Source of the DNA: Felis catus
Taxonomy: Eukaryota
Assembly: GCF_018350175.1 (NCBI RefSeq)
Contig: NC_058381.1
Span: 39,866,001 to 39,930,000 of the forward strand
Length of the DNA stretch: 64,000 nucleotides
Reading direction: 5' to 3'
Positions 48-45,065 of this stretch are shown piece after piece. The notes below the pieces were generated by a model. That model saw only the letters and a list, made by a program, of their open reading frames with translations, had not been told where the DNA came from and searched no databases. Both the position numbers and the translations under genes were made by a program. Within the stretch, counting starts at the first letter, position 1; each line of letters begins with the position of its first letter.

Positions 48-2044
48 AAGGACAACGGCAAGTGCATATCATAGAATTTCTCTAATCCTTGCCTGAGGAA
101 TCTACAGCCATTGTCTCAGAGCACGCTGAAATACTCATATGTTTGCAGACTGTTGGACATGGGATCTGAGTTGAACTCCTTGCTGGATACCCACAATCCT
201 TCATGGCCGTTTTTGAATATACTGATTAGATGTGAGAGTTAAAGGAGACGTTTCCCCACTACCTTCATCCCAGTGATCCCTTGGGGGAATTTGTGCCTCC
301 TTCTACCAGAATTGTAGGCTGTGTTCAACTAGAGATCTCGGTTCTCAGGCAGGAAAACTAACTGGAAGGGACATGGTAAAGTTCTGATTGGAATTAAACC
401 CCTGGCTGCCACCTTATTCCATGGACTTCTAGTGCCACGAGGGCAGCAGTCAACGTTAGGAGCTACAGGGGCCACAGGGAATATTTTTAGGATTCAGGAT
501 ATCTACAGGGACATTTGTGGTGTTCCTATTCCTGGAATTAACTGCAGATGGGCAAGTAGTGTAGCCTGAAGAGGACACAGGAACCAGGGGTTCAGGACTC
601 TCAGGAATGGGGAACTTGTACTGAACCAGGCAAGTCAGCTAGGGGAGCGCTGAAGCTGCCCATTAACTCTCATCTTCTAGGTTTTTATAGAAACTGTGGC
701 AAACGACCTGGAGCAAGGTTACTGAGAGAAATGCATAGATATGGGCAGAACCAGGAGTAGGTTCTGATATCCCATTCTGATTCTCTTTGCCATACATGCC
801 GTAGTGCGAGTGTGGGCTACGCGTGGTTCACACTGATCACGCACTATCTGCAGGTAACTGTCTCAGACTCTGGGGTGGGGGACACCTGGAGTTCTTGCTC
901 TCCATCCTTTCCACTCACCAAAGGATGTTGACAAGTAGCGATAGGTGACGTAGGAGCACAAAGGCCCAGCGGCTTTTTCCACTAAGATGAGCAAGTCTGT
1001 GGCCCAGTACACACCCCTCATGTGTGGGTCAGAATATGAGGGCGGAGTTGAACCGAAAGCACCCTTTGTCTTAGCTTCTTTTACCACCCTGTGCTGACTC
1101 CGCTTTGCACTGGGTCTCCTGAGAGCACCTCCTTCCTTATGCAGTACTTATGCAGGAATACCCGTTGTAGGCTCTGGTATTTTGAATGCAACGTGAGAAT
1201 CACATTTTGGTGTGGTCCGTCTCAAGCATAGCCTCCTTGAGAGAGACACTTCCTAACATGGTGAGCTGTTTTATTGGTGGGAGTGTCGGCAGTCCTTTGG
1301 GATATATGATCTTCCAAGAATTGGACACAGGAAGTCTAAAACCAAGTGTGCACAAACTGTGAGAAGAAACAACATCCTATGAAAAGATTCAGTGGTTCAG
1401 CGGAGAATGAGGTCGAGAGCCCACAGTGTCACCCAGTGACCGTTCATATCATAGGGAAATGTTTGAAGGCACTGTTACTGAGACTAGGAACCCTGGTGTC
1501 AGGTCGACCTCAGGGTCGGAGCTCAAAACAGAGGCTTGAGACCAAGTAGATTGTCCGGGAGGTGGTCCCAAGTAGTGCTCTAGGGATACTGTGAAGTGAT
1601 CCAGGGAAGGGTGGAAACCAATCCAGGTTGATTTCAAGAGCAGGTGAGTCCTGTGGGCATCGGGGGTTCGTTCAGTGCTACTGAGGCCCTCTGGTCTCAC
1701 ACGCCCACTCAAGGGGAAAGAGGCTAGAGCACTTATCCACCAACTACTGGCCACCTTTCAAACGCTTCTCCCAGGCACTTGCCTTCCCTGCTCTGTCCTG
1801 TGATAAACGTTCCTTCACGTAGACCGAGCCCTCCACAGAGAGTTCCAGGTGCTTGCTGCAAGGCACCGTCCTAAACTGTTAGCGTGGGAAGCGCCGAGGT
1901 GATAGAAGTGAAAGTCCTGAAATCGCCTGCTATGACCTGCTCGTTGTGCAGAGAATAGTAGAAGACCTGACAGCTAAGGGTGACCATTGAAGAAGGAAAA
2001 AGAATGAGACACGATTTCTTATATTTATGCCTGGAAAATCAAGA

Positions 2045-2050
2045 TTTATT
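2045..2050 (-). terminator. Polyadenylation signal AATAAA, type A gene (also 25389-25394, 48761-48766)
   Basis: tttatt on + strand ~340 bp past the stop; followed on the minus strand by a T/GT-rich tract; conserved in type B. Confidence 0.8.
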
Positions 2051-2388
2051 TGACGTACAGAAACATCTCCATATCAGAAAATCTGGCAGTAGCTGATACA
2101 TCAATCAGAGTGGCACGTTAACCTATATCAGATAATACAATCTTTGTAGTGATTTGCGGTGGAGTTAGTAACAAGGAGGTGAGGAGGGAGTGGGCGGTAG
2201 GGAGGTATATTCCAAGGCCAACCAGTTGAAAAATCACTGGGAACTGAGGTTTTACAGTTGGCCTCATGATTCAGCTCCCAGTTGGACGACATGAAGGAGG
2301 TTGGCTGACGAAAACAGCAGGGTGCAGGTCAGGGCACTCAGCAGCAGCAAGAGCCACTAGAGCAGGTTGGTGGGTGGTGGCAGGGGGT

Positions 2389-2985
2389 CTAGCAACAGCT
2401 GGGGCGGCAGCAGCTGGACACACAGCAGGTGGGGCGGCAGCAGGTGGTCCGGCAGCAGGTGGTCTGGCAGCAGGTGGGGCGGCAGCAAGGCTGGCAGCAG
2501 CTGGAGCCACAGCAATTCGAGCCACAGCCGCTGGAACCCCCACAGCAGGGGCGGCAGCAACTGGACACACAGCAGGTGGGGCGGCAGCAGGTGGTCCGGC
2601 AGCAGGTGGTCTGGCAGCAGGTGGGGCGGCAGCAGGGCTGGCAGCAGCTGGAGCCACAGCAGCTGGAACCCCCACAGCAGGGCCGGCAGCAGCTAGAGAT
2701 GCAGCAGCTGGGCCTGCAGCAGCTGGAACCACAGCAGCTGGGGCGGCAGCAAGTGGTCCTGCAGCAGGTGGTCTGGCAGCAGGTGGGGCGGCAGCAAGGC
2801 TGGCAGCAGCTGGAGCCACAGCAGCTGGAACCCCCACAGCAGGGGCGGCAGCAGCTGGAGCCACAGCAGCTGGGGCGACAGCAGGTGGTCCTGCAGCAGG
2901 TGGTCTGGCAGCAGCTGGGGCGGCAACAAGTCTCCTGGCCACAGCCCTGGTCAGAGCAGACGGAGCCACAACACGAGTTGACCAT
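2389..2985 (-). CDS. KRTAP4: Keratin-associated protein 4 family (ultra-high-sulfur), type A, copy 1; 198 aa, intronless
   Basis: Starts [31 protein letters not shown], the KRTAP4 N-terminal signature. Built of CCxxx pentapeptides; ~39% Cys by hand count. ATG in ACCATGG context at 2985, TATA ~80 bp upstream, AATAAA downstream. The exact paralog number cannot be assigned. Confidence 0.93.
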
Positions 2986-3065
2986 GGTGTCAGAGGGTGG
3001 AGGTTCTGGGATGGTTTCCAGGAGAGTAGGGGCTTGAGTCTGATGTCTCCTCGTGCCATGGCCTC

Positions 3066-3072
3066 TTATATA
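3066..3072 (-). promoter_or_regulatory. TATA box of type A gene (also 26411-26417, 49783-49789)
   Basis: TATATAA(GAGGC) on the minus strand ~80 bp upstream of the ATG; conserved in type B. Confidence 0.85.
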
Positions 3073-3090
3073 CTGCCCGTCCATGGTGAG

Positions 3091-3129
3091 TTGTCAACAC
3101 ATCTTCCTTGTGTTTGTTTACCTAATATT
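3091..3129 (-). promoter_or_regulatory. Conserved proximal promoter block (forkhead-like GTAAACAAACA, Ets-like AGGAAG)
   Basis: 39 bp identical between type A (3091-3129) and type B (15661-15699) amid diverged flanks. Confidence 0.55.
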
Positions 3130-5296
3130 AACTAATTATCAGATTACACAATAATGTTTGTGCATGTAATGGTTTAAACTTGTGGGGAACAAAATTTCTT
3201 TTCTCGATGTGATGAATTCTCTCTGGTCTGTGTTTCCTCCTGATTCACACCCACTGGCATCTTCCTGACCACTTTCTCCTCATCTTCCTCCACCGTGGGC
3301 TGTCACGTGATAGGTGGCATTTGCAATTACATTCCGTACTCTCCCTCCTGTATCCCCTAGCAGGTAGGATAAGGGCCGTCCTATTTTTGGTGGTGCATTT
3401 CTTCCAATGGTCAGTGGCATGAGTAATGATCTGCATGTGACAAGAAGAAAAGGCCCTCTTTATGGCGGCAGTTTGGAGCAAAGGGGACAGCTGTATATTT
3501 GTATGACGTTGCCGATTTCTAGCCACTGGACTGGGTTTTTTTGGATGTTTCTACCTTGGATCACGTCCTCTAGCCTACAACCGTGGCAGACAATTATCTG
3601 TATGGTTCCCATCACTGCCATGCTTCATGGTTCATGAAGTGTTAACCTTGGTGTCATGTATGTTTGGTTTTATTTCTCCAGATGCTCTTATCTTGTGGAA
3701 GACATTGCTTTACTTTTGTTTCTTACTCTTTTTTTAATATGAAATTTGTTGTCAAATTGGTTTCCATACAACACCCAGTGCTCATCCCAACAGGTGCCCT
3801 CCTTAATACCCATCACGAACCCACCCCTCCCTCCCATCCCCCACCCCCCCATCAACCCTCAGTTTGTTCTCAGTTTTTAAGAGTCTCTTATCTTTTGGCT
3901 CCCTCCCTCTCTAACCTTTCTTTTTCCCTTCCCCTCCCCCATGGTCTTCTGGTAAGTTTCTCAGGATCCACATAAGAGTGAAAACATATGGTATCTGTCT
4001 TTGTATGACTTATTTCACTTAGCATAACACTCTTTTCACTTCGCATAATACTCTCCAGTTCCATCCATGTTGCCACAAAAGGGCATATTTCATTCTTTCT
4101 CGTTGCCACGTAGTATTCCATTGTGTATATAAACCATAAATTCTTTATCCTTTCATCAGTTGGTGGACATTTAAAGAGTCTTTCCATAATTTGGCTATTG
4201 TTGAAAGTGCTGCTGTAAACATTGGGGTACAAGTGCCCCTGTGCATCAGCACTCCTGTATCCCTTGGGTAAATTCCTAGCAGTGCTATTGCTGGGTCATA
4301 GGTAGATCTATTTTTAATTTTCTGAGGAACCTCCACACTGTTTTCCAGAGAGGCTGCACCAGTTTGCGTTCCCACCAACAGTGCAAGAGGGTTCCTGTTT
4401 CTCCACATCCTCACCAGCATCTGTAGTTTCCCGATTTGTTCCTTTTTGCCACTCTGACTGGCGTGAGGTAGTATCTCAGTGCGGTTTGGATTGTGTTTCC
4501 CTCATGAGGAGCGACGTTGAGCATCTTTTCATGTGTCTGTTGGCCATCTGGGTGTCTTCTTTAGAGAAGTGTCTATTCATGTTTTCTGCCCATTTCTTCA
4601 CTGGATTATTTGCTTTTCGGGTGTGGAGTTTGGTGAGCTCTTTATAGATTTTGGATACTAGCCGTTTGTCCGACATGTCATTTGCAAATATCTTTTCCCA
4701 TTCCGTTGGTTGCCTTTTAGTTTTGTTGATTGTTTCCTTTGCAGTGCAGAAGCTTTTTATCTTCATGAGGTCCCAATAGTTCATTTTTGCTTTTAATTCC
4801 CTTGCCTTTGGAGATGTGTCAAGTAAGAAATTTCTGCGGCTGAGGTCAGAGAGGTGTTCTCCCGCTTCCTCCTCTAGGGTTTTGATGGTTTCCTGTCTCA
4901 CATTCTGGTCCTTTATCCATTTTGAGTTTATTTTTGTGAATGGTGTAAGAAAGTGGTCTAGTTTCATCCTTCTGCATGTTGCTGTTGAGTTCTCCCAGCA
5001 CCATTTGTTAAAGAGACCATCTTTTTTCCGTTGGATGTTCTTTCCTGCTTTGTCAAAGGTTAGTTGGCCATACTTTTGTGGGTCTAATTCTGGGGTTTCT
5101 ATTCTATTCCATTGGTCTATGTGTCTGTTTTTGTGCCCATACCGTGCTGTCTTGATGATTATAGCTTTGTAGTAGAGGCTAAAGTCTGGGATTGTGATGG
5201 CTCCCGCTTTGGTCTTCTTCTTCAAAATTACTTTGGCTATTCGGGGTCTTTTGTGGTTCCATACACATTTTAGGATTGCTTGTTCTAGCTTCGGGA

Positions 5297-15001: not shown

Positions 15002-15553
15002 CTAGCAACAGCTGGGGCGGCAGCAGCTGGACACACAGCAGGTGGGGCGGCAGCAGGTGGTCCGGCAGCAGGTGGTCTGGCAGCAGGTGGGGCGGCAGCA
15101 AGGCTGGCAGCAGCTGGAGCCACAGCAATTAGAGCCACAGCAGCTGGAGCCCCCACAGCAGGGGCGGCAGCAGCTGGACACACAGCAGGTGGGGCGGCAG
15201 CAGGTGGTCCTGCAGCAGGTGGTCTGGCAGCAAGGCTGGCAGCAGCTGGAGCCACAGCAGCTGGAACCCCCACAGCAGGGGCGGCAGCAGGTGGTCCTGC
15301 AGCAGGTGGTCTGGCAGCAGGTGGGGCGGCAGCAGCTAGAGATGCAGCAGCTGGGCCTGCAGCAGCTGGAGCCACAGCAATTAGAGCCACAACAGCTGGA
15401 GCCACAGCAGGAGGGGCGGCAGCAGCTGGACACACAGCAGGTGGGCCGGCAGCAGGTGGTCCTGCAGCACGTTGTCTGGCAGCAGGTGGGGCGGCAGCAA
15501 GGCTGGCAGCAGCTGGAGCCACAGCAGCTGGAGCCACAACAGGAGTTGACCAT
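15002..15553 (-). CDS. KRTAP4: KRTAP4-like protein, type B, copy 1; 183 aa
   Basis: [28 protein letters not shown]... with the same 5'UTR, TATA and 3'UTR as type A; lacks the [11 protein letters not shown] segment. Confidence 0.9.
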
Positions 15554-16681: not shown

Positions 16682-17599
16682 GCCTGTTCCTTTGTCCTGA
16701 TCCTTTAAGCTCTGAGAGGTGCCTCTGTGTAGTTCCTGTGTGCTTTTAAAGCCGACTTGTTGAATGGCTTTAAAGAGATACACACATTGCCAGTTGTTGA
16801 TGTTCTATGTACCGTTTAGGGTCTCCTCCCCGGAAATGCACAGGCTACTGAGAAGCCCCACCATGAACACACTTACAGATAACTGCAATGTAGTATTGAA
16901 AGAACCGTCAAAGGAGTTCGTAGTAGTATGATTTAACTAGAAGAATTGTGTTTGAGGCAAATCAGCCAAGAAGACAGTTTGGTAAAACCATAGAGTTACT
17001 CATAAATAAACTACTTAGTGTTTCTTGTTTACATTTTGTGATTTATTTCGCAACGTAGAAGGGATTTACACACAGTTGAATCTATTTATCCTAAGTGTAC
17101 TCATCCATAGTGATGAGTTATGATACACAGAAGCAGGTCCATGTAATCCCCCCATCTCTCAGTAGAACATTTCCATTATGGCAGAAAGTCCCCACTTGTC
17201 CCTTACTAAAGTCTGAACTACCATAGAGGCAATCACTGTTTTCATGTATTTTTCACTGTAGAATAGTTTTGATCTAGACCTTTGAATAGATGATATGTAG
17301 TATATATCTCTAGCATATATACTGTTTCTAGAGAATATGTTATTTCTCCTCTGTTTTGCACCATTAACATGCCTATGCCTATGCGAATCACTAACACTGG
17401 TGCATATATTAGTGGTTCATTTTGTGCTATATGAGAGAAGTATCAAGACTTATCCTAACTGTTTCCAATGTATGTTATGGTAGGGTAACCAGGCATTCCT
17501 TAAGCCCATCTTTCATTTTTAATCTTAAATAGAGATGCATTTCAGTTCACCCTAAATTTTTTGAAAAAGTCTTTCATATTATTTAAAATGCACATATGC

Positions 17600-17954
17600 A
17601 GTGTGTGCAGCATGGTCTTGGCTTTGGGAGTTGATTCCCTTGGTTTGTCACTTGCATGCAGCACTTGGTGCTTGTCCCATTGGGTGCCTCCTCTGTGCCC
17701 ATCACCCATTTTCCCCACCCCACTGACCCTCAGTTTGTTCTCTGTATTTAGGACTCTGTTGGGCTTTGCCTCCCTCTCTAGAGACAGAGGCTGTTAAGTG
17801 CAGAGAACTAACTAAGGTCCCTGGAGGGGCTTGAGTGGGGGGATGGGCTAAGTGGGTGATGGCATTGGGGAGGGCACTTGTTTGGAAGGGCACTGGGTGT
17901 TGTATGTAAGTGAGGAATAACTAAATTCTATTGCTGAAACCATTACTACCCTGT
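17600..17954. mobile_element. Two L1 3'UTR fragments in inverted (fold-back) arrangement (also ~40966-41320)
   Basis: 17600-17780 resembles the minus-strand L1 3' end at 3765-3912; 17785-17954 resembles the plus-strand L1 3' end at 21170-21295. Confidence 0.8.
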
Positions 17955-18683
17955 NNNNNNNNNNNNNNNNNNNNNNNNNNNNNNNNNNNNNNNNNNNNNN
18001 NNNNNNNNNNNNNNNNNNNNNNNNNNNNNNNNNNNNNNNNNNNNNNNNNNNNNNNNNNNNNNNNNNNNNNNNNNNNNNNNNNNNNNNNNNNNNNNNNNNN
18101 NNNNNNNNNNNNNNNNNNNNNNNNNNNNNNNNNNNNNNNNNNNNNNNNNNNNNNNNNNNNNNNNNNNNNNNNNNNNNNNTGAGTGGGTGGCCCCTCGCTG
18201 TTTCCATTGCAGATCCTAGATCTATAGAAACTATACAATTCATCTACAGAGGGAAAAGAAACAAAAAACCAGTATGATCCCTGATGTCACAATATAGGTC
18301 TACATGTCACTAGTTTGTAGACAACCAGCCTTGATTTCCATTTCTGGCTGCACTCTGAAAGCTGGGTTCCTGGCCATGTAAGAGGAAGTGCTTAAGGAGG
18401 CCAAGACATGGCCAAGTAAGTACTGGGAATTCATCTGCGCATGGCAAACAGAATAAACCCATTATAAAAGGCATTATTTTAGCTTAAGAGCAATATATTC
18501 CCATGTGTTTAAGTAAGAGTAGGTGGTATTTTTACTTTACATTTTGGCAGATTTGTTGTGAAAAAATTCAGGCCATACCACATCATCTGAAGAGCAGAGA
18601 ATACGTCCGATAGTTGGGCGAGGATCTGTCCCTTGGTACTGAGCTAGAGTTAGAAGGAAAGCATAGACATTGAAGAGCCCATC

Positions 18684-20891
18684 AAGAAATAGAAAATTTG
18701 AACAGACCCATAACCAGTAAAGAAATCGAATTAGTAGTCAAAAATGTCCCAAAACACAAGAGTCCAGAGCCAGATGGCTTTCCAGGGGACTTCTACCAAA
18801 CATTTAAGGAAGAGTTCATACCTATTCTCTTGAAGCTGTTCCAAAAAATAGAAATGAAAGGAAAACTTTCATACCCTTTCTATGAAGCCAGCATTACCTT
18901 GATTCCAAAACCAACCCCATTAAAAAGGGGAACTATAGACCAATTTCCCTGATGAACATGGATGCAAAAATCCTCAAGATATTAGCCAACTGGATCCAAC
19001 AATACTTAAAAAAAAAAAATTATTCACCTCGCCCAAGTGGGATTTATACCTGGGATGCAGGGCTGGTTCAATATCTGCAAAACAATTGACGTGATTCATC
19101 ACATCAATGGAAGAAAGTTCAAGAACCCTATGATCCTCTCAATAGATGCAGAGAAAGCATTTGACAAGATACAGCGTCCTTTCTTGATAAAAACCCTCAA
19201 GAAAGTAGGGGCAGAAGGATCATACCTCGAGGTCATAAAAGCCATATATGAACAACCCAACACTAATATCATCCTTAATGGGGAAACACTGAGAGCTGTC
19301 CCCCTCCGGTCAGGAACACGACAGGGATGTCCACTCTCACTACTGTTATTCAACATGGTATTGGAAGTCTTAGCCTCAGCAGTCAGACAACACAAAGAAA
19401 TAAAGGGCATCCAAATGGGCCAGGAGGGAGTCAAACTTTCACTCTTTGCAGATGACTGATACTCTATATGGAAAACCCAAAAGATTCCACTAAAAAACTG
19501 CTAGAACTGATTCATGAATTCAGCAAGGTTGCAGTATATAAAATCAATGCACAGAAATCGGTTGCATTCCTACACACCGACAATGAAGCAACAGAAAGAG
19601 AAGTCAATGAATCGATCCTGTTTACAACTGCACGCAAAACCATAAGATACCCAGGAATAAATCTAACCAAAGAAGTGAAAAATCTATACACTGAAAACTA
19701 TAGAAAGCTTATGAAAGAAATTGGAGAAGACAAACCCCAAAAAGGAAAAATATTCCATGCTCCTGGATAGGAAGAACAAATATTGTTAAAAGGTCAATAC
19801 TACCGAAAGCAACCTACATATTCAATGCAATCCCTATCAAAATAACACCAGCGTTCTTCACAGAGGTAGAACAAACAATCCTAAAATTTGTGTAGAACCA
19901 GAAAAGACCCCGAATAGCCAAAGCATTCTTGAAGAAGAAACCCAATGCAGGAGACATCACAATTCTGGACATCAAGCTGTATTACATAGCTGTAATCATC
20001 AAGACAGTATGGCACAAAAACAGACACTCAGGTCAGTGAAGCACAATAGAGAACCCAGAAAGGGATCCACAAACTTATGACCAACTAATCTTTGACAAAG
20101 CAGGAAAGAATATCCAATGGAATAAAGACAGTCTCTTCAGCAAGTGGTGCTGAGAAAACTGGGCAGCGACATGCAGAAAAACGAACCTGGACCACTTTCT
20201 TACACCATCCACAACAATAAACTCAAAATGGATGAAAGGCCTGAATGTAAGACAGGAAGCCATCAAAATCCCCAAAGAGAAAGCAGGCAAAAACCTCTTT
20301 GACCTTGGCCACAGCAGCTTCTTACTCAGCATGTCTCTGGAGGCAAGGGAGACAAAAGCAAAAATGAACTACTGGGACCTCATCAAAATAAAAGTTTCTG
20401 CACAGCAAAGAAAACAATCAGCAAAACTAACAGGCAACGCACGGAATGGGAGAAGATATTTGCAAATGACATATCAGATAAAGGGTTAGTATCCAAAATC
20501 TCTAAAGAAGTTATCAAACTCAACACCCCCAAAACAAATAATCCAGTGAAGACATGGGCAAAAGGCATGAACAGACACTTCTCCAAAGGAGACATCTGGG
20601 AAATACAAATCAAAGCCACCATGAGATACCACCTCACACCTATCAGAACGGCTAACATTAACGACTCAGCTATAAACAGATGTTGGCGAGGATGTGGAGA
20701 AAGAGGATCTCTTTTGCACTGCTGGTGGGAATGCAAACTGGTGCAGCCACTCTGGAAACCAGTATGGAGGTTCCTCAACAAATTAAAAGTAGAACTACCC
20801 CACGACCCAGCAATTGCACTACTAGGTATTTACCCAAGGGATACAGGTGGGCTGTTTCGAAGGGACGTATGCACCCTAACGTTTGTATATA

Positions 20892-20934
<43 letters not shown>

Positions 20935-21352
20935 ATATATATACACACACACACATCCACAATGGAGTATTACTCGGCAATCAAAAAGAATGGAATCTTG
21001 CCATTTGCAACTATGTGGATGGAACTAGAGGATATTATGCTAAGCAGAACTAGCAAGTCAGAGAAAGACAAATATTACATGACTTCACTCATATGAGGAC
21101 TTTAAGATACAAACCAGATGAACATAAGGGAAGGGAAGAAAAATATAAAAACAGGGAGGGGGACAAAAACATAAGAGACTCATAAATATGGAGAACACAG
21201 AGAGGGTTACTGGAGGGGTTGAGGGAGGGGGGATGGGCTAAATGGGTAAGGGACATTAAGGAATCTACTCCTGAAATCACTGTTACACTATCTGCTAACT
21301 AACTTGGATGTAAATAAAAAAAAATAAATTAAATAAAAATTGTTTTTTAAAA
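18684..21352 (+). mobile_element. 5'-truncated carnivore LINE-1 (~2.7 kb)
   Basis: ORF2 RT fragments ([37 protein letters not shown]), 3'UTR and A-rich tail; TSD AAGAGCCCATC at 18673-18683 and 21353-21363. Confidence 0.96.
20885..20956. repeat. (TA)/(TG)n/(TA)/(CA)n compound microsatellite within L1
   Basis: Directly visible. Confidence 0.9.
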
Positions 21353-21693
21353 AAGAGCCCATCTGTGACCCACTGGCAAATGCAATCTCTTTCTAAGCCT
21401 TTCTAAATCTCTTACCCACTGGTAAATGTCAGTGGATCTTACCATGAAAAATGAGAAATAGAAGAAAGCTTACCACTTCTCAAATCCTATTAGAAAAAAC
21501 AACTGTTGTATATTGTATTTTTCCACGGAGGAGCCAGCTCACATATTAACATATGAATTCTTTTTCTTGCGAAGACGCCATGGAAGCATTCATTTGACTA
21601 ACAACACCCTAATATTGCATTTTTACAATGAAAAAAAATGCACATACGGTGTAAAGCATACAAAGTACATGTACGTGATAAAAAATAGTTATA

Positions 21694-21898
21694 GGGGCGC
21701 CTGGGTGGCTCAGTTGGTTGAGCGTCCAGCTTCAGCTCAGGTCATGATCTCGCTTTCTGTGGGTTCGAGCCCCATGTCGGCCTCTGTGCTGACAGCTCAG
21801 AGCCTGGAGCCTGCATCCGATTCTGTGTCTCCCTCTCCGGCCCCTCCCCCGCTCGTGCCCTGTCTCTCTCTCGCTCCCTCAAAAATAAGTAAACATTA
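21694..21898 (+). mobile_element. tRNA-derived CanSINE, feliform type (SINEC_Fc-like)
   Basis: GGGGCGCCTGGGTGGCTCAG head, GGTTCGAGCCC B box, TGCTGACAGCTCAGAGCCTGGAGCCTG body, CT tract and A tail; 15-bp TSD aaaaaatagttatag at 21680-21694 and 21899-21913. Confidence 0.96.
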
Positions 21899-22192
21899 AA
21901 AAAATAGTTATAGAGCAAACATCCACGTATCAAAACCTGGAGTCAAGAAATAGAACCTTGTTACTACTAAGAAGGCTCTTCTATGCCCTTTCTTGACCAC
22001 GAACACTTTTCCACCCTCCAGATGATTATTATGCTGATTTTTCAAGTAATCTTTTCATTTATTTTTCTTGCAGTTTCATTACCTATGTAGGCATCCCTAT
22101 ATGATACAGTTTTATTTCGCATCTTTCTGAATTTTTATAGGAATGAAATCTCACTGTAAGTGTAACTTTTTTACTCAATGTTATGGAAGAGT

Positions 22193-25733: not shown

Positions 25734-26330
25734 CTAGCAACAGCTGGGGCGGCAGCAGCTGGACACACAGCAGGTGGGGCGGCAGCAGGTGGTCCGGCAG
25801 CAGGTGGTCTGGCAGCAGGTGGGGCGGCAGCAAGGCTGGCAGCAGCTGGAGCCACAGCAATTCGAGCCACAGCCGCTGGAACCCCCACAGCAGGGGCGGC
25901 AGCAGCTGGACACACAGCAGGTGGGGCGGCAGCAGGTGGTCCGGCAGCAGGTGGTCTGGCAGCAGGTGGGGCGGCAGCAGGGCTGGCAGCAGCTGGAGCC
26001 ACAGCAGCTGGAACCCCCACAGCAGGGCCGGCAGCAGCTAGAGATGCAGCAGCTGGGCCTGCAGCAGCTGGAACCACAGCAGCTGGGGCGGCAGCAAGTG
26101 GTCCTGCAGCAGGTGGTCTGGCAGCAGGTGGGGCGGCAGCAAGGCTGGCAGCAGCTGGAGCCACAGCAGCTGGAACCCCCACAGCAGGGGCGGCAGCAGC
26201 TGGAGCCACAGCAGCTGGGGCGACAGCAGGTGGTCCTGCAGCAGGTGGTCTGGCAGCAGCTGGGGCGGCAACAAGTCTCCTGGCCACAGCCCTGGTCAGA
26301 GCAGACGGAGCCACAACACGAGTTGACCAT
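25734..26330 (-). CDS. KRTAP4: KRTAP4-like type A, copy 2
   Basis: Protein identical to 2389-2985. Confidence 0.93.
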
Positions 26331-27075
26331 GGTGTCAGAGGGTGGAGGTTCTGGGATGGTTTCCAGGAGAGTAGGGGCTTGAGTCTGATGTCTCCTCGTG
26401 CCATGGCCTCTTATATACTGCCCGTCCATGGTGAGTTGTCAACACATCTTCCTTGTGTTTGTTTACCTAATATTAACTAATTATCAGATTACACAATAAT
26501 GTTTGTGCATGTAATGGTTTAAACTTGTGGGGAACAAAATTTCTTTTCTCGATGTGATGAATTCTCTCTGGTCTGTGTTTCCTCCTGATTCACACCCACT
26601 GGCATCTTCCTGACCACTTTCTCCTCATCTTCCTCCACCGTGGGCTGTCACGTGATAGGTGGCATTTGCAATTACATTCCGTACTCTCCCTCCTGTATCC
26701 CCTAGCAGGTAGGATAAGGGCCGTCCTATTTTTGGTGGTGCATTTCTTCCAATGGTCAGTGGCATGAGTAATGATCTGCATGTGACAAGAAGAAAAGGCC
26801 CTCTTTATGGCGGCAGTTTGGAGCAAAGGGGACAGCTGTATATTTGTATGACGTTGCCGATTTCTAGCCACTGGACTGGGTTTTTTTGGATGTTTCTACC
26901 TTGGATCACGTCCTCTAGCCTACAACCGTGGCAGACAATTATCTGTATGGTTCCCATCACTGCCATGCTTCATGGTTCATGAAGTGTTAACCTTGGTGTC
27001 ATGTATGTTTGGTTTTATTTCTCCAGATGCTCTTATCTTGTGGAAGACATTGCTTTACTTTTGTTTCTTACTCTT

Positions 27076-38919: not shown

Positions 38920-41900
38920 GGTATCAGAGGGTGGAGGTTCTGGGCTGGTTTCCAGGAGAGTGAGGGGCTGGACTTTGGAAGTCTCCTTGTGCCCTGGCCT
39001 CTTATATACTGCTCGTACCGGGTGATTTGTCAACACATCTTCCTTGTGTTTGTTTACCTAATATTTAAGTAATTGTCAGATTACAGAATAATGTGTGTCT
39101 ATGTACTGGTTGAAACTGATGGCAAAGAGGTTTTCTTGTTGGATGTGAGAAACTCTGCGTGGTCTGCTTTTCCTCCTGACCTACACCCACTGGCATCCTC
39201 TGGACCACTCTCCTCTTCTTCCTCCACAGCAGGCTGTCATGTGGTAGGTGGCATTTGCAATTACATTTCTTGTTTTCCTCTCCTACACCCCTAGCAGCAA
39301 GGGGTTAAGGCAAACCTGTTTTGGATTGTGCATTTCTTCCAATGGTCAGTGGGAGGGAACCCCATCTGCATAGTGTGGAGGTGGCATGGGACAAGAGGAA
39401 AAGGTCCTATTTTATGGGTCAGTTTTAATGAGGAAGGGAGTCAGTGTCTATGAACACGTGATGTTGGTAACCTCTGCCACTGGAATGGGTTTTCTTGTTT
39501 CTAACTTTAATGTTTCTGCCTTTGGATCACGTTCTCTACCCCAAAGCCACGGCAGACAATTGGGTGCATGGTTCCCATCACTGCCACGATTTGTAGTTCA
39601 TTGAGTGTTATCATTGCCGTCATGTATCTTTGCATTACATTTCTCTGGAAGGTCTTTAGACTGTGGAAGACACCGCCTTTACAAATTCTTATCTCATTCT
39701 TAATAAAGCATATTCTTCAATGGAGGAGAAAAAAAAAGTTGAATAATCAGAATGCACTCTCCTCTGATCTTATCTCCATAGCTGGGAATTCTAGAGTGCA
39801 CATTTGTTTGGATCCATTTAAAATGTGAATGGATTTTAGTGTAGTCAGGTTACATAGTTGGTCTTTATACTTATTCCCCATTTACTAATAGTCCAACTTG
39901 AGGATGCAGCAAGTATCTGAAGGGCTCATAAGATATGGTGCGACAAATCTCAGAAGTTCTGAATATGGCGCTAGGGGTGTGGGCTGAAATTTGGCATTTC
40001 TGCCAAGTACCCAGATGATGCTGAAGGCCCCAGGATGACACTTAGAGGCCTGTTCCTTTGTCCTGATCCTTTAAGCTCTGAGAGGTGCCTCTGTGTAGTT
40101 CCTGTGTGCTTTTAAAGCCGACTTGTTGAATGGCTTTAAAGAGATACACACATTGCCAGTTGTTGATGTTCTATGTACCGTTTAGGGTCTCCTCCCCGGA
40201 AATGCACAGGCTACTGAGAAGCCCCACCATGAACACACTTACAGATAACTGCAATGTAGTATTGAAAGAACCGTCAAAGGAGTTCGTAGTAGTATGATTT
40301 AACTAGAAGAATTGTGTTTGAGGCAAATCAGCCAAGAAGACAGTTTGGTAAAACCATAGAGTTACTCATAAATAAACTACTTAGTGTTTCTTGTTTACAT
40401 TTTGTGATTTATTTCGCAACGTAGAAGGGATTTACACACAGTTGAATCTATTTATCCTAAGTGTACTCATCCATAGTGATGAGTTATGATACACAGAAGC
40501 AGGTCCATGTAATCCCCCCATCTCTCAGTAGAACATTTCCATTATGGCAGAAAGTCCCCACTTGTCCCTTACTAAAGTCTGAACTACCATAGAGGCAATC
40601 ACTGTTTTCATGTATTTTTCACTGTAGAATAGTTTTGATCTAGACCTTTGAATAGATGATATGTAGTATATATCTCTAGCATATATACTGTTTCTAGAGA
40701 ATATGTTATTTCTCCTCTGTTTTGCACCATTAACATGCCTATGCCTATGCGAATCACTAACACTGGTGCATATATTAGTGGTTCATTTTGTGCTATATGA
40801 GAGAAGTATCAAGACTTATCCTAACTGTTTCCAATGTATGTTATGGTAGGGTAACCAGGCATTCCTTAAGCCCATCTTTCATTTTTAATCTTAAATAGAG
40901 ATGCATTTCAGTTCACCCTAAATTTTTTGAAAAAGTCTTTCATATTATTTAAAATGCACATATGCAGTGTGTGCAGCATGGTCTTGGCTTTGGGAGTTGA
41001 TTCCCTTGGTTTGTCACTTGCATGCAGCACTTGGTGCTTGTCCCATTGGGTGCCTCCTCTGTGCCCATCACCCATTTTCCCCACCCCACTGACCCTCAGT
41101 TTGTTCTCTGTATTTAGGACTCTGTTGGGCTTTGCCTCCCTCTCTAGAGACAGAGGCTGTTAAGTGCAGAGAACTAACTAAGGTCCCTGGAGGGGCTTGA
41201 GTGGGGGGATGGGCTAAGTGGGTGATGGCATTGGGGAGGGCACTTGTTTGGAAGGGCACTGGGTGTTGTATGTAAGTGAGGAATAACTAAATTCTATTGC
41301 TGAAACCATTACTACCCTGTNNNNNNNNNNNNNNNNNNNNNNNNNNNNNNNNNNNNNNNNNNNNNNNNNNNNNNNNNNNNNNNNNNNNNNNNNNNNNNNN
41401 NNNNNNNNNNNNNNNNNNNNNNNNNNNNNNNNNNNNNNNNNNNNNNNNNNNNNNNNNNNNNNNNNNNNNNNNNNNNNNNNNNNNNNNNNNNNNNNNNNNN
41501 NNNNNNNNNNNNNNNNNNNNNNNNNNNNNNNNNNNNNNNNNNNNNNNNNNNTGAGTGGGTGGCCCCTCGCTGTTTCCATTGCAGATCCTAGATCTATAGA
41601 AACTATACAATTCATCTACAGAGGGAAAAGAAACAAAAAACCAGTATGATCCCTGATGTCACAATATAGGTCTACATGTCACTAGTTTGTAGACAACCAG
41701 CCTTGATTTCCATTTCTGGCTGCACTCTGAAAGCTGGGTTCCTGGCCATGTAAGAGGAAGTGCTTAAGGAGGCCAAGACATGGCCAAGTAAGTACTGGGA
41801 ATTCATCTGCGCATGGCAAACAGAATAAACCCATTATAAAAGGCATTATTTTAGCTTAAGAGCAATATATTCCCATGTGTTTAAGTAAGAGTAGGTGGTA

Positions 41901-42055
41901 TTTTTACTTTACATTTTGGCAGATTTGTTGTGAAAAAATTCAGGCCATACCACATCATCTGAAGAGCAGAGAATACGTCCGATAGTTGGGCGAGGATCTG
42001 TCCCTTGGTACTGAGCTAGAGTTAGAAGGAAAGCATAGACATTGAAGAGCCCATC

Positions 42056-44263
42056 AAGAAATAGAAAATTTGAACAGACCCATAACCAGTAAAGAAATCG
42101 AATTAGTAGTCAAAAATGTCCCAAAACACAAGAGTCCAGAGCCAGATGGCTTTCCAGGGGACTTCTACCAAACATTTAAGGAAGAGTTCATACCTATTCT
42201 CTTGAAGCTGTTCCAAAAAATAGAAATGAAAGGAAAACTTTCATACCCTTTCTATGAAGCCAGCATTACCTTGATTCCAAAACCAACCCCATTAAAAAGG
42301 GGAACTATAGACCAATTTCCCTGATGAACATGGATGCAAAAATCCTCAAGATATTAGCCAACTGGATCCAACAATACTTAAAAAAAAAAAATTATTCACC
42401 TCGCCCAAGTGGGATTTATACCTGGGATGCAGGGCTGGTTCAATATCTGCAAAACAATTGACGTGATTCATCACATCAATGGAAGAAAGTTCAAGAACCC
42501 TATGATCCTCTCAATAGATGCAGAGAAAGCATTTGACAAGATACAGCGTCCTTTCTTGATAAAAACCCTCAAGAAAGTAGGGGCAGAAGGATCATACCTC
42601 GAGGTCATAAAAGCCATATATGAACAACCCAACACTAATATCATCCTTAATGGGGAAACACTGAGAGCTGTCCCCCTCCGGTCAGGAACACGACAGGGAT
42701 GTCCACTCTCACTACTGTTATTCAACATGGTATTGGAAGTCTTAGCCTCAGCAGTCAGACAACACAAAGAAATAAAGGGCATCCAAATGGGCCAGGAGGG
42801 AGTCAAACTTTCACTCTTTGCAGATGACTGATACTCTATATGGAAAACCCAAAAGATTCCACTAAAAAACTGCTAGAACTGATTCATGAATTCAGCAAGG
42901 TTGCAGTATATAAAATCAATGCACAGAAATCGGTTGCATTCCTACACACCGACAATGAAGCAACAGAAAGAGAAGTCAATGAATCGATCCTGTTTACAAC
43001 TGCACGCAAAACCATAAGATACCCAGGAATAAATCTAACCAAAGAAGTGAAAAATCTATACACTGAAAACTATAGAAAGCTTATGAAAGAAATTGGAGAA
43101 GACAAACCCCAAAAAGGAAAAATATTCCATGCTCCTGGATAGGAAGAACAAATATTGTTAAAAGGTCAATACTACCGAAAGCAACCTACATATTCAATGC
43201 AATCCCTATCAAAATAACACCAGCGTTCTTCACAGAGGTAGAACAAACAATCCTAAAATTTGTGTAGAACCAGAAAAGACCCCGAATAGCCAAAGCATTC
43301 TTGAAGAAGAAACCCAATGCAGGAGACATCACAATTCTGGACATCAAGCTGTATTACATAGCTGTAATCATCAAGACAGTATGGCACAAAAACAGACACT
43401 CAGGTCAGTGAAGCACAATAGAGAACCCAGAAAGGGATCCACAAACTTATGACCAACTAATCTTTGACAAAGCAGGAAAGAATATCCAATGGAATAAAGA
43501 CAGTCTCTTCAGCAAGTGGTGCTGAGAAAACTGGGCAGCGACATGCAGAAAAACGAACCTGGACCACTTTCTTACACCATCCACAACAATAAACTCAAAA
43601 TGGATGAAAGGCCTGAATGTAAGACAGGAAGCCATCAAAATCCCCAAAGAGAAAGCAGGCAAAAACCTCTTTGACCTTGGCCACAGCAGCTTCTTACTCA
43701 GCATGTCTCTGGAGGCAAGGGAGACAAAAGCAAAAATGAACTACTGGGACCTCATCAAAATAAAAGTTTCTGCACAGCAAAGAAAACAATCAGCAAAACT
43801 AACAGGCAACGCACGGAATGGGAGAAGATATTTGCAAATGACATATCAGATAAAGGGTTAGTATCCAAAATCTCTAAAGAAGTTATCAAACTCAACACCC
43901 CCAAAACAAATAATCCAGTGAAGACATGGGCAAAAGGCATGAACAGACACTTCTCCAAAGGAGACATCTGGGAAATACAAATCAAAGCCACCATGAGATA
44001 CCACCTCACACCTATCAGAACGGCTAACATTAACGACTCAGCTATAAACAGATGTTGGCGAGGATGTGGAGAAAGAGGATCTCTTTTGCACTGCTGGTGG
44101 GAATGCAAACTGGTGCAGCCACTCTGGAAACCAGTATGGAGGTTCCTCAACAAATTAAAAGTAGAACTACCCCACGACCCAGCAATTGCACTACTAGGTA
44201 TTTACCCAAGGGATACAGGTGGGCTGTTTCGAAGGGACGTATGCACCCTAACGTTTGTATATA

Positions 44264-44306
<43 letters not shown>

Positions 44307-44724
44307 ATATATATACACACACACACATCCACAATGGAGTATTACTCGGCAATCAAAAAGAATGGAATCTTGCCATTTGCAACTATGTGGATGGAACTAG
44401 AGGATATTATGCTAAGCAGAACTAGCAAGTCAGAGAAAGACAAATATTACATGACTTCACTCATATGAGGACTTTAAGATACAAACCAGATGAACATAAG
44501 GGAAGGGAAGAAAAATATAAAAACAGGGAGGGGGACAAAAACATAAGAGACTCATAAATATGGAGAACACAGAGAGGGTTACTGGAGGGGTTGAGGGAGG
44601 GGGGATGGGCTAAATGGGTAAGGGACATTAAGGAATCTACTCCTGAAATCACTGTTACACTATCTGCTAACTAACTTGGATGTAAATAAAAAAAAATAAA
44701 TTAAATAAAAATTGTTTTTTAAAA
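42056..44724 (+). mobile_element. 5'-truncated LINE-1, copy 2
   Basis: Duplicate of 18684-21352. Confidence 0.96.
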
Positions 44725-45065
44725 AAGAGCCCATCTGTGACCCACTGGCAAATGCAATCTCTTTCTAAGCCTTTCTAAATCTCTTACCCACTGGTAAATG
44801 TCAGTGGATCTTACCATGAAAAATGAGAAATAGAAGAAAGCTTACCACTTCTCAAATCCTATTAGAAAAAACAACTGTTGTATATTGTATTTTTCCACGG
44901 AGGAGCCAGCTCACATATTAACATATGAATTCTTTTTCTTGCGAAGACGCCATGGAAGCATTCATTTGACTAACAACACCCTAATATTGCATTTTTACAA
45001 TGAAAAAAAATGCACATACGGTGTAAAGCATACAAAGTACATGTACGTGATAAAAAATAGTTATA

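Follow-up and report, generated by a model that had tools for sequence, protein, structure and literature searches.

Retrocopies that L1 makes in trans from cellular RNA, as in processed pseudogenes, show a target-site duplication (TSD), an endonuclease-type target, an A-rich 3' end, 5' truncation and an unlinked parent. A-to-I editing of RNA is usually regarded as non-heritable. Clustered, one-way and strand-biased germline changes of retroelements, polarised by consensus, have been described as APOBEC "DNA editing" (PMC4866542, PMC2873906, PMC12548423); ADAR is not mentioned in the main text of PMC4866542, and in the part of PMC12548423 dealing with Mtv61 it was weighed and no motif found. 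Hyper-editing of transcript inverted repeats by ADAR produces dense A>G on both arms with a trend towards T/A as 5' neighbour, according to PMC4365171 and PMC526178, and A-to-G hyperediting by ADAR is recorded for the avian retroviruses RAV-1 and ALV (Felder 1994; Hajjar and Linial 1995, cited in PMC8586724). ADAR1 binds the L1 RNP, and its restriction of L1 was described as editing-independent, no editing being seen in >2.5 kb of L1 RNA (PMC5224506). A route from RNA editing via reverse transcription to A>G change in DNA has been proposed (PMC10209271, PMC12941027). Our searches of open-access main texts brought up no germline retrocopy described as stemming from an RNA edited by ADAR.

The window, i.e. 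the whole 64-kb stretch of DNA analysed, contains, within a hair-keratin (KRTAP) gene cluster, an insert that very probably stems from an intergenic transcript which ADAR had hyper-edited and L1 then retroposed in trans, about 27 one-strand A>G changes having been fixed in the germline. It shares with L1 trans retrocopies all the hallmarks listed above, and differs from the usual ones in that its parent is non-coding and offers no introns to test, and in having a one-strand A>G cluster that the parent lacks. As in APOBEC DNA editing, the changes are clustered, unidirectional, strand-biased and germline-fixed at insertion; unlike the G>A changes which those reports attribute to cytidine deamination of the cDNA of LTR elements, they are A>G, confined to an RNA duplex and located in a non-LTR passenger RNA. 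Like ADAR-edited transcripts, the insert has A>G on both arms of a fold-back of inverted retroelements with a T/A 5' neighbour trend, whereas the edits in those accounts are RNA-only and not inherited and the changes here sit in genomic DNA. As with RAV-1 and ALV, inosine-bearing RNA would have been copied to DNA as G; those cases, as cited, concern exogenous retroviruses with their own RT in cultured or infected cells, in contrast to a host non-coding RNA, the L1 RT and the mammalian germline. The reported presence of ADAR1 on the L1 RNP suggests that ADAR meets RNAs on the L1 route; unlike in that study, where no edited L1 RNA was described, a passenger RNA would here have been edited and still integrated.

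Four exact matches of AAAATGCACATA occur in the window (17585–17596, 21635–21646, 40951–40962 and 45007–45018), TTT preceding the left copy and a short A run the right one, which agrees with the 12-bp direct repeat that the first-pass annotation had placed around the insert. Without the nested L1 and one copy of its TSD, the insert amounts to 1087 + 271 = 1358 bp, as had been estimated (~1.36 kb). Homology to the source starts 2–3 nt from the left AAAATGCACATA and stops 3–4 nt short of the right one; since its limits thus abut both repeats, the repeat is not due to chance.

Table: Features of the insert and of its second copy (window coordinates)
Feature	Position	Strand	Remarks
5' target-site duplication AAAATGCACATA	17585..17596	+	adjoins TTT/AAAA L1-endonuclease-type site; single in two paralogous monomers
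Arm 1 of hairpin: short L1 3'-end fragment in antisense orientation, probably hyper-edited (A>G on + strand)	17597..17780	-	
Arm 2 of hairpin: L1 3'-end fragment in sense orientation, from a different subfamily, probably edited (A>G on + strand)	17781..17954	+	extends into masked stretch
Masked stretch (N) within insert	17955..18179	.	
Unique non-coding part 1 of retrocopy	18180..18683	+	neutral substitution spectrum; final 18673-18683 = nested-L1 TSD
Nested 5'-truncated L1	18684..21352	+	3' part of ORF2 with RT remnant, 3' UTR, A-rich tail
Unique non-coding part 2 of retrocopy, opening with second nested-L1 TSD	21353..21630	+	reaches 3' limit of homology to source
Remnant A tail, 3-4 A's unexplained by source or TSD	21631..21634	+	junction sequences
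3' target-site duplication AAAATGCACATA	21635..21646	+	
Second copy of whole element	40951..45018	+	tandem duplication of 23.37-kb KRTAP unit

The paralogous monomer A had been named as running through this point uninterrupted; it is indeed continuous without the insert, but it has diverged beyond keeping the 12-mer and reads GGAAAACATACATATA. Two closer paralogs outside the window show the empty target, one (G000:C37:39863511) with AAAATGCACATA once and the other (G000:C37:39988315) with the 12-mer once as AAAATGAACATA. The TSD with an empty site expected of an L1 retrocopy is thus present, and the endonuclease-type site reads TTT/AAAA in the copy and TAT/AAAA and TGT/AAAA in the two paralogs. 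At the 5' junction the paralog reads TATGCTG, the source TATACAG and the copy TATGCAG; a possible microhomology TATGC would hinge on one edit and cannot be assigned.

A search with the two unique parts of the insert, for which an unlinked source had been postulated, returned a single one, a co-linear, 85–87% identical, 1.43-kb non-coding stretch on another chromosome (G000:C21:52.492 Mb). Unique part 1 is 87% identical to G000:C21:52492869–52493360, and unique part 2 85–95% to G000:C21:52493373–52493689. Among the 40 of 3521 candidates scored in the edited-hairpin search, both hairpin arms together occurred only in five array copies and the source; the others were single-arm L1s, the closest at 84–86%. 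The source has an inverted pair, formed by a sense L1 3' UTR with a short antisense L1 3' end inside it; the predicted fold-back is an RNA duplex of ~145 bp (–204 kcal/mol, 5 G-U pairs), as compared to –175 kcal/mol and 28 G-U pairs predicted for the copy. In the 50 kb around it (25 kb on either side), inspection by eye of the frames of 70+ aa between stops revealed nothing recognisable as a coding exon. Searches confined to Ten_N and Peptidase_S28 located one gene 0.90 Mb downstream of the source and one 2.8 Mb upstream. Because of these distances and the lack of a recognised exon, intergenic RNA is the likelier origin, and the 3'UTR/intronic fragment first suggested was not borne out. Alignment of copy and source revealed no intron-sized GT-AG gap; a source segment of ~60 nt is represented by 22 nt in the copy, and its junctions do not fit a clean splice. 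With regard to transcription, the raw-read runs X24 and X21 (1–2% of each sampled) gave one read each on the unique part of the source. Among the contigs of runs X1–X4 that matched the hairpin, other L1 copies drowned out the source, and a 154-nt contig over the arm junction has four differing letters, one of them listed as A>G (L006:1181, source coordinates) from the contig alone.

Comparison of copy and source revealed A>G at 31/100 A's in the hairpin versus 13/271 outside it (Fisher p=1.3e-10). Hairpin T>C was much rarer (7/113; p=1.9e-6 against hairpin A>G), G>A was found at 3/73, i.e. without an APOBEC-type sense-strand excess, and neither T>C nor G>A differed between the hairpin and the unique parts (p=0.60 and 0.55). 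Within the unique parts A>G equals T>C (p=1.0), with 9/167 for A>G in part 1, and the KRTAP flank compared with its paralog likewise has no A>G excess (A>G 8/123, T>C 15/130). When polarised with 12 L1 copies from elsewhere per arm, 27 A>G changes were copy-only and none source-only. At these 27 sites 9–12 of the 12 L1 copies have A; the raw A/G differences number 33, and the remaining six reflect G>A on the side of the source or an ancestral CpG. Copy-only A>G affected 15/38 ancestral A's in arm 1 and 12/52 in arm 2. A BLAST-based test against 62 L1 3'-end alignments, picked for similarity and with some loci duplicated, gave 17/40 for arm 1 versus a maximum of 10.6%, and 8/49 for arm 2 versus 13.3%, barely above background; a hyper-edited look was seen in none of the 62. 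The arms represent opposite L1 orientations, yet A>G lies on the same + strand in both, the strand which the polarity of TSD and A tail identifies as that of the RNA. The copy hairpin thus probably acquired its ~27 one-strand changes because ADAR hyper-edited the folded RNA, which the L1 RT then copied.

The 5' neighbours of edited A's (U 10/23, A 8/21, G 4/17, C 5/25) put U, A and G in the order expected from the ADAR preference, without significance (G versus rest, p=0.56), and a 3'-G was not enriched at edited A's (7/19). Predicted pairing did not favour editing, 22/75 paired versus 5/11 unpaired A's being changed; distal arm 2 has 2/20 edited, its pairing partner 9/18. Of 25 CA sites in the source, six read TG and none CG in the copy. 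One of the six (L006:919) is an ancestral CpG and was excluded; at the remaining five, 10–12 of 12 L1 copies have CA. C>T thus accompanied editing at 5/5 CA sites as compared to 2/69 at other sites (p about 1e-6, calculated by hand), the pattern to be expected had editing created CpGs which later decayed.

The inverted L1 pair at the source provides the fold-back with which our proposed sequence of events begins. A Pol II transcript of the + strand would have had its end close to L006:2323 in the source and formed the ~145-bp duplex, and ADAR would have turned about one third of the duplex A's into inosine. Judging from the insertion hallmarks, L1 ORF2p probably nicked TTT/AAAA beside a KRTAP gene and primed at the A-rich RNA end, reading I as G; reverse transcription may have stopped after traversing the hairpin, and the insertion left the 12-bp TSD. 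The edited CA sites would subsequently have passed through CpG to TG. Later the copy was interrupted by a younger L1, and tandem amplification brought the unit to five copies. By a rough estimate, retroposition dates back ~30 Myr. The insert is a molecular fossil, for which no function is claimed.

A smaller yet appreciable share of probability falls to a retrocopy with the same editing that was primed at a genomic A-rich end (AAAATAA) of unprocessed nuclear RNA, without a true poly(A) tail. The very short A tail noted in the first-pass annotation was confirmed, just 3–4 A's being non-templated; the source reads TTTTTAAAATAACAC at its end point, lacks AATAAA and ATTAAA within 80 nt upstream, and is spanned there without a break by a contig of run X2 (presumed RNA). 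On the other hand, the missing canonical signal, which had been listed as a weak point, is partly compensated by a variant AATACA in the source, 23 nt upstream of the end point, whose decayed counterpart in the copy is AACACC; in the source a TGTG/GT-rich stretch follows directly downstream of the end point. Poly(A) tails of insertions shorten over tens of Myr, which could explain the few A's, and a contig of run X1 (presumed RNA) stops at L006:2311, where depth drops from 9.5 to 3–6, a weak hint only. It is improbable that the insert is a DNA-level copy (by double-strand-break repair or duplication) or an orphan L1 3' transduction instead of a cellular RNA mobilised in trans: the short tail and the start of the insert inside L1-derived sequence would fit, but the 12-bp TSD lies at an endonuclease-type site, the one-strand A>G requires an RNA stage, and within 25 kb upstream of the source there is no long + strand L1, just a short L1 3'-UTR fragment, so that the transduction first considered finds no support.

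Change of the DNA after insertion, without RNA editing, has a very low probability in our estimation, even in a recombination-prone tandem array and with an ADAR motif short of significance. GC-biased gene conversion is strand-symmetric, but hairpin T>C stays at background; conversion between the arms should increase complementarity, and instead A-U pairs became G-U; and neither these nor a transcription-linked A>G asymmetry would account for an excess that ends at the hairpin. It is hardly credible that the source changed instead of the copy, by APOBEC G>A or CpG decay, or that the arms stem from G-rich L1 subfamilies. The six source-side or ancestral-CpG sites among the 33 raw differences fit the former, which polarisation refutes with A in genomic L1 copies at the other 27; G-rich subfamilies cannot explain why one L1 shows T>C and the other A>G on a single physical strand, and no L1 among the candidates scored in the edited-hairpin search exceeded 84–86% per arm.

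If ADAR editing before retroposition is accepted, the insert provides a concrete example of edited RNA that likely became inherited mammalian DNA, its parent, its empty site and the strand all being known. This would imply that inosine-rich nuclear RNA can enter the germline L1 pathway and that the L1 RT reads I as G. With regard to the editing-to-DNA route as outlined in PMC10209271 and PMC12941027, a new locus arose here and the parent was not replaced. On balance, we lean towards the view that mammalian L1 regularly writes ADAR-hyperedited transcripts into the germline, which would constitute an undescribed class of dated single-molecule editing records. Its signature would be one-strand A>G on both inverted-repeat arms together with CA>TG from the decay of editing-made CpGs. 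This signature is searchable; the age of such copies will be overestimated, and when reads are mapped they can be mistaken for RNA editing.

The nested L1, in which RVT_1 (PF00078) matches at 19055–19459 (E=2e-17), has its own 11-bp TSD, AAGAGCCCATC, at 18673–18683 and 21353–21363. AAGAGCCCATC is present twice in the copy and once in the source, where the nested-L1 site is thus empty; the nested L1 arrived after retroposition. Together with the unlinked source and the empty paralogs, this upholds the initial proposal of an L1-mediated insertion of a + strand non-coding RNA that a later L1 interrupted. The 23.37-kb KRTAP unit occurs in five tandem copies in G000, and the repetition of the element at 40951–45018, likewise noticed initially, proved correct, the second window copy matching the first at every unmasked letter compared (370 and 3467 bp).

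The 12-bp direct repeat AAAATGCACATA occurs four times in the KRTAP array of the window, at 17585, 21635, 40951 and 45007, and both flanks the insert in monomer B as a target site duplication (TSD) and recurs downstream, as stated in the first-pass annotation. Removal of the nested L1 leaves 1358 bp, in agreement with the ~1.36 kb estimated before. Amplification of the 23.37-kb repeating unit followed the insertion; five copies (window 6260-64000; G000:C37:39.87-39.98 Mb, the array contig) are 99.8-100% identical, which points either to very recent amplification or to expansion in the assembly. Similarity between the first unit (window 59-5296) and the remaining ones is only 96%. The target site (window 17500-17596, 21647-22170) presumably lies within an old antisense L1M-type 3'-end fragment common to all monomers. 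A SINE with its own duplication AAAAAATAGTTATAG is located 45 bp right of the insert (window 21690-21905) and is missing from three paralogous monomers.

Features of the KRTAP array and of the insert in monomer B (window positions)
Feature	Position	Strand	Remark
Keratin_B2 ORF	15002-15553	-	in KRTAP array
Keratin_B2 ORF	25734-26429	-	in KRTAP array
Hairpin arm 1 of copy	17597-17780
Hairpin arm 2 of copy	17781-17954
Unique parts of copy	18180-18683, 21353-21630
Nested L1	18684-21352		own TSD AAGAGCCCATC; RT remnant

With the two unique parts as queries, the cat genome yielded the five array copies at 100% identity and, at 87% and 85-95%, a single unlinked locus, C21:52492869-52493689, so that the unlinked source anticipated from the sequence does exist. 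This source (extract L006) is co-linear with the entire insert, from the hairpin through the 3' end, and since it contains AAGAGCCCATC once, the nested L1 is younger than the copying event. Homology begins at most 2-3 nt from the left TSD and stops at the source TTTTTAAAATAA, after which 3-4 A's precede the right TSD. These A's may be the remnant of a poly(A) tail. AATACA, a minor poly(A) signal, is located in the source 23 nt upstream of the homology end; neither AATAAA nor ATTAAA is present in the last 80 nt of the source before the end point. At the 5' junction, TATGC (window 17597-17601) is a possible microhomology, the target match of which requires an edited base. About 60 nt of the source (L006:2042-2104) are exchanged in the copy for 22 nt (window 21400-21428) resembling window 21361-21382 (86%), suggesting a templated deletion or an RT template jump.

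The paralogous monomer A is alignable across the site, as had been noted, and lacks both the insert and the exact 12-mer. Two closer paralogs beyond the window each contain the 12-mer once (C37:39863511, exact; C37:39988315, one change) and, once the flanks of the insert in monomer B are joined, align with them unbroken. Because there are three insert-free monomers and a parent at another locus, insertion into B is far simpler than deletion elsewhere. The unique parts differ at 90 of 791 sites (Jukes-Cantor 0.12, slightly inflated by end columns); with a substitution rate of about 2e-9 per site per year, this would suggest an age of roughly 30 Myr, and the insert is thus predicted in all cats.

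Within the hairpin, copy and source differ by A>G at 31/100 sites, T>C at 7/113, G>A at 3/73 and C>T at 8/80, the corresponding values for the unique parts being 13/271, 10/220, 10/146 and 11/154 (a small number of terminal columns that overlap with the TSDs are counted). The A>G excess is confined to the fold-back (Fisher p=1.3e-10, inside versus outside) and to one strand (p=1.9e-6, A>G versus T>C within the hairpin), and the remaining classes show no difference between hairpin and unique parts. A>G in the BLAST alignment reached 42.5% in arm 1 and 16% in arm 2, as compared to maxima of 13.3% A>G and 10.6% T>C among 62 alignments of background L1 3' ends. Both arms show A>G on the + strand despite their opposite L1 orientations, and the TSD and the A tail point to the same strand as that of the RNA. 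For each arm, 24 L1 loci were fetched, and the 12 that reached at least 85% similarity to the source arm served to set the polarity: copy-only G occurred at 15/38 and 12/52 A sites in the two arms, source-only G at none. Of the 33 raw A/G differences in this alignment, the L1 copies carry A at 27, and the other six are source-side changes or an ancestral CpG.

Of 25 CA dinucleotides in the source, 16 are unchanged, six are now TG, none is CG and three are otherwise changed. One CA>TG site was excluded as ancestral CpG; the five retained are CA in 10-12 of 12 L1 copies, and C>T elsewhere amounts to 2/69 (5/5 versus 2/69, p about 1e-6, hand calculation). This pattern fits the prediction of A>G first and methyl-CpG deamination in DNA afterwards.

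The insert is very probably an ADAR-edited RNA retroposed by L1. The + strand of the source would have been transcribed and the transcript folded into a duplex, on which ADAR would have acted; L1 target-primed reverse transcription would then have read inosine as G. GC-biased conversion conflicts with the strand asymmetry, and conversion of one arm by the other with the lost complementarity, predicted G-U pairs rising from 5 in the source to 28 in the copy. The base class speaks against APOBEC, and the polarity against change on the source side. Had editing acted on the cDNA of an RNA:DNA hybrid, T>C would be expected on the + strand, where A>G is seen.

Other data speak against editing or give no proof of it. 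ADAR is described in PMC4365171 as disfavouring a 5' G and favouring a 3' G. The 5' neighbours of edited A's (U 10/23, A 8/21, G 4/17, C 5/25) show a trend only (p=0.56), and 7/19 A's with a 3' G are edited. CpG decay at CA implies that some edits reverted unseen, which would account for the low 5'-C rate. Predicted paired A's are not preferred (22/75 paired versus 5/11 unpaired edited), and distal arm 2 is sparsely edited (2/20). Raw RNA runs gave one read each on the source. One presumed-RNA contig ends at L006:2311, close to the end of the copy, and another continues through; a contig across the arm junction, without matched DNA, shows A>G at a fossil site.

By its TSD, site and parent the insert is an L1-type retrocopy, and its poly(A) end is equivocal. 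A similar mechanism is described for LTR elements, in which DNA editing by APOBEC has become fixed (PMC4866542, PMC2873906, PMC12548423), but the insert points to the other deaminase, acting at the RNA stage. PMC8586724 reports ADAR hyperediting reaching DNA in avian retroviruses; PMC5224506 reports ADAR1 binding to the L1 RNP, with no editing found in L1 RNA. No report of a germline retrocopy of edited RNA was found in the openly accessible main texts searched.

No exons were recognised within 25 kb on either side of the source. The first coding exon of a teneurin is located 0.90 Mb downstream, on the same strand as the source, and 2.8 Mb upstream there is a Peptidase_S28 gene. Orphan transduction from a full-length L1, considered in the first-pass annotation, is unsupported, since the only + strand L1 sequence within 25 kb upstream is the L1 3'-UTR fragment of the hairpin itself. 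The source hairpin consists of the 3' end of an antisense L1, short and marked by a duplication of its own, AGAAACAGAGAC(T/C)CTT, inserted into a sense L1 3' UTR of a different subfamily; the + strand RNA is predicted to fold with 145 base pairs at -204 kcal/mol. Source and copy share ~10 differences from the L1 majorities, and the hairpin therefore predates copying by some time. The insertion point of the antisense L1 3' end nearly coincides with the site that corresponds by homology to the 5' truncation of the inserted fragment (L006:834-849, 1092-1107), which left the hairpin with a very short loop; homology-assisted 5' joining may have been involved.
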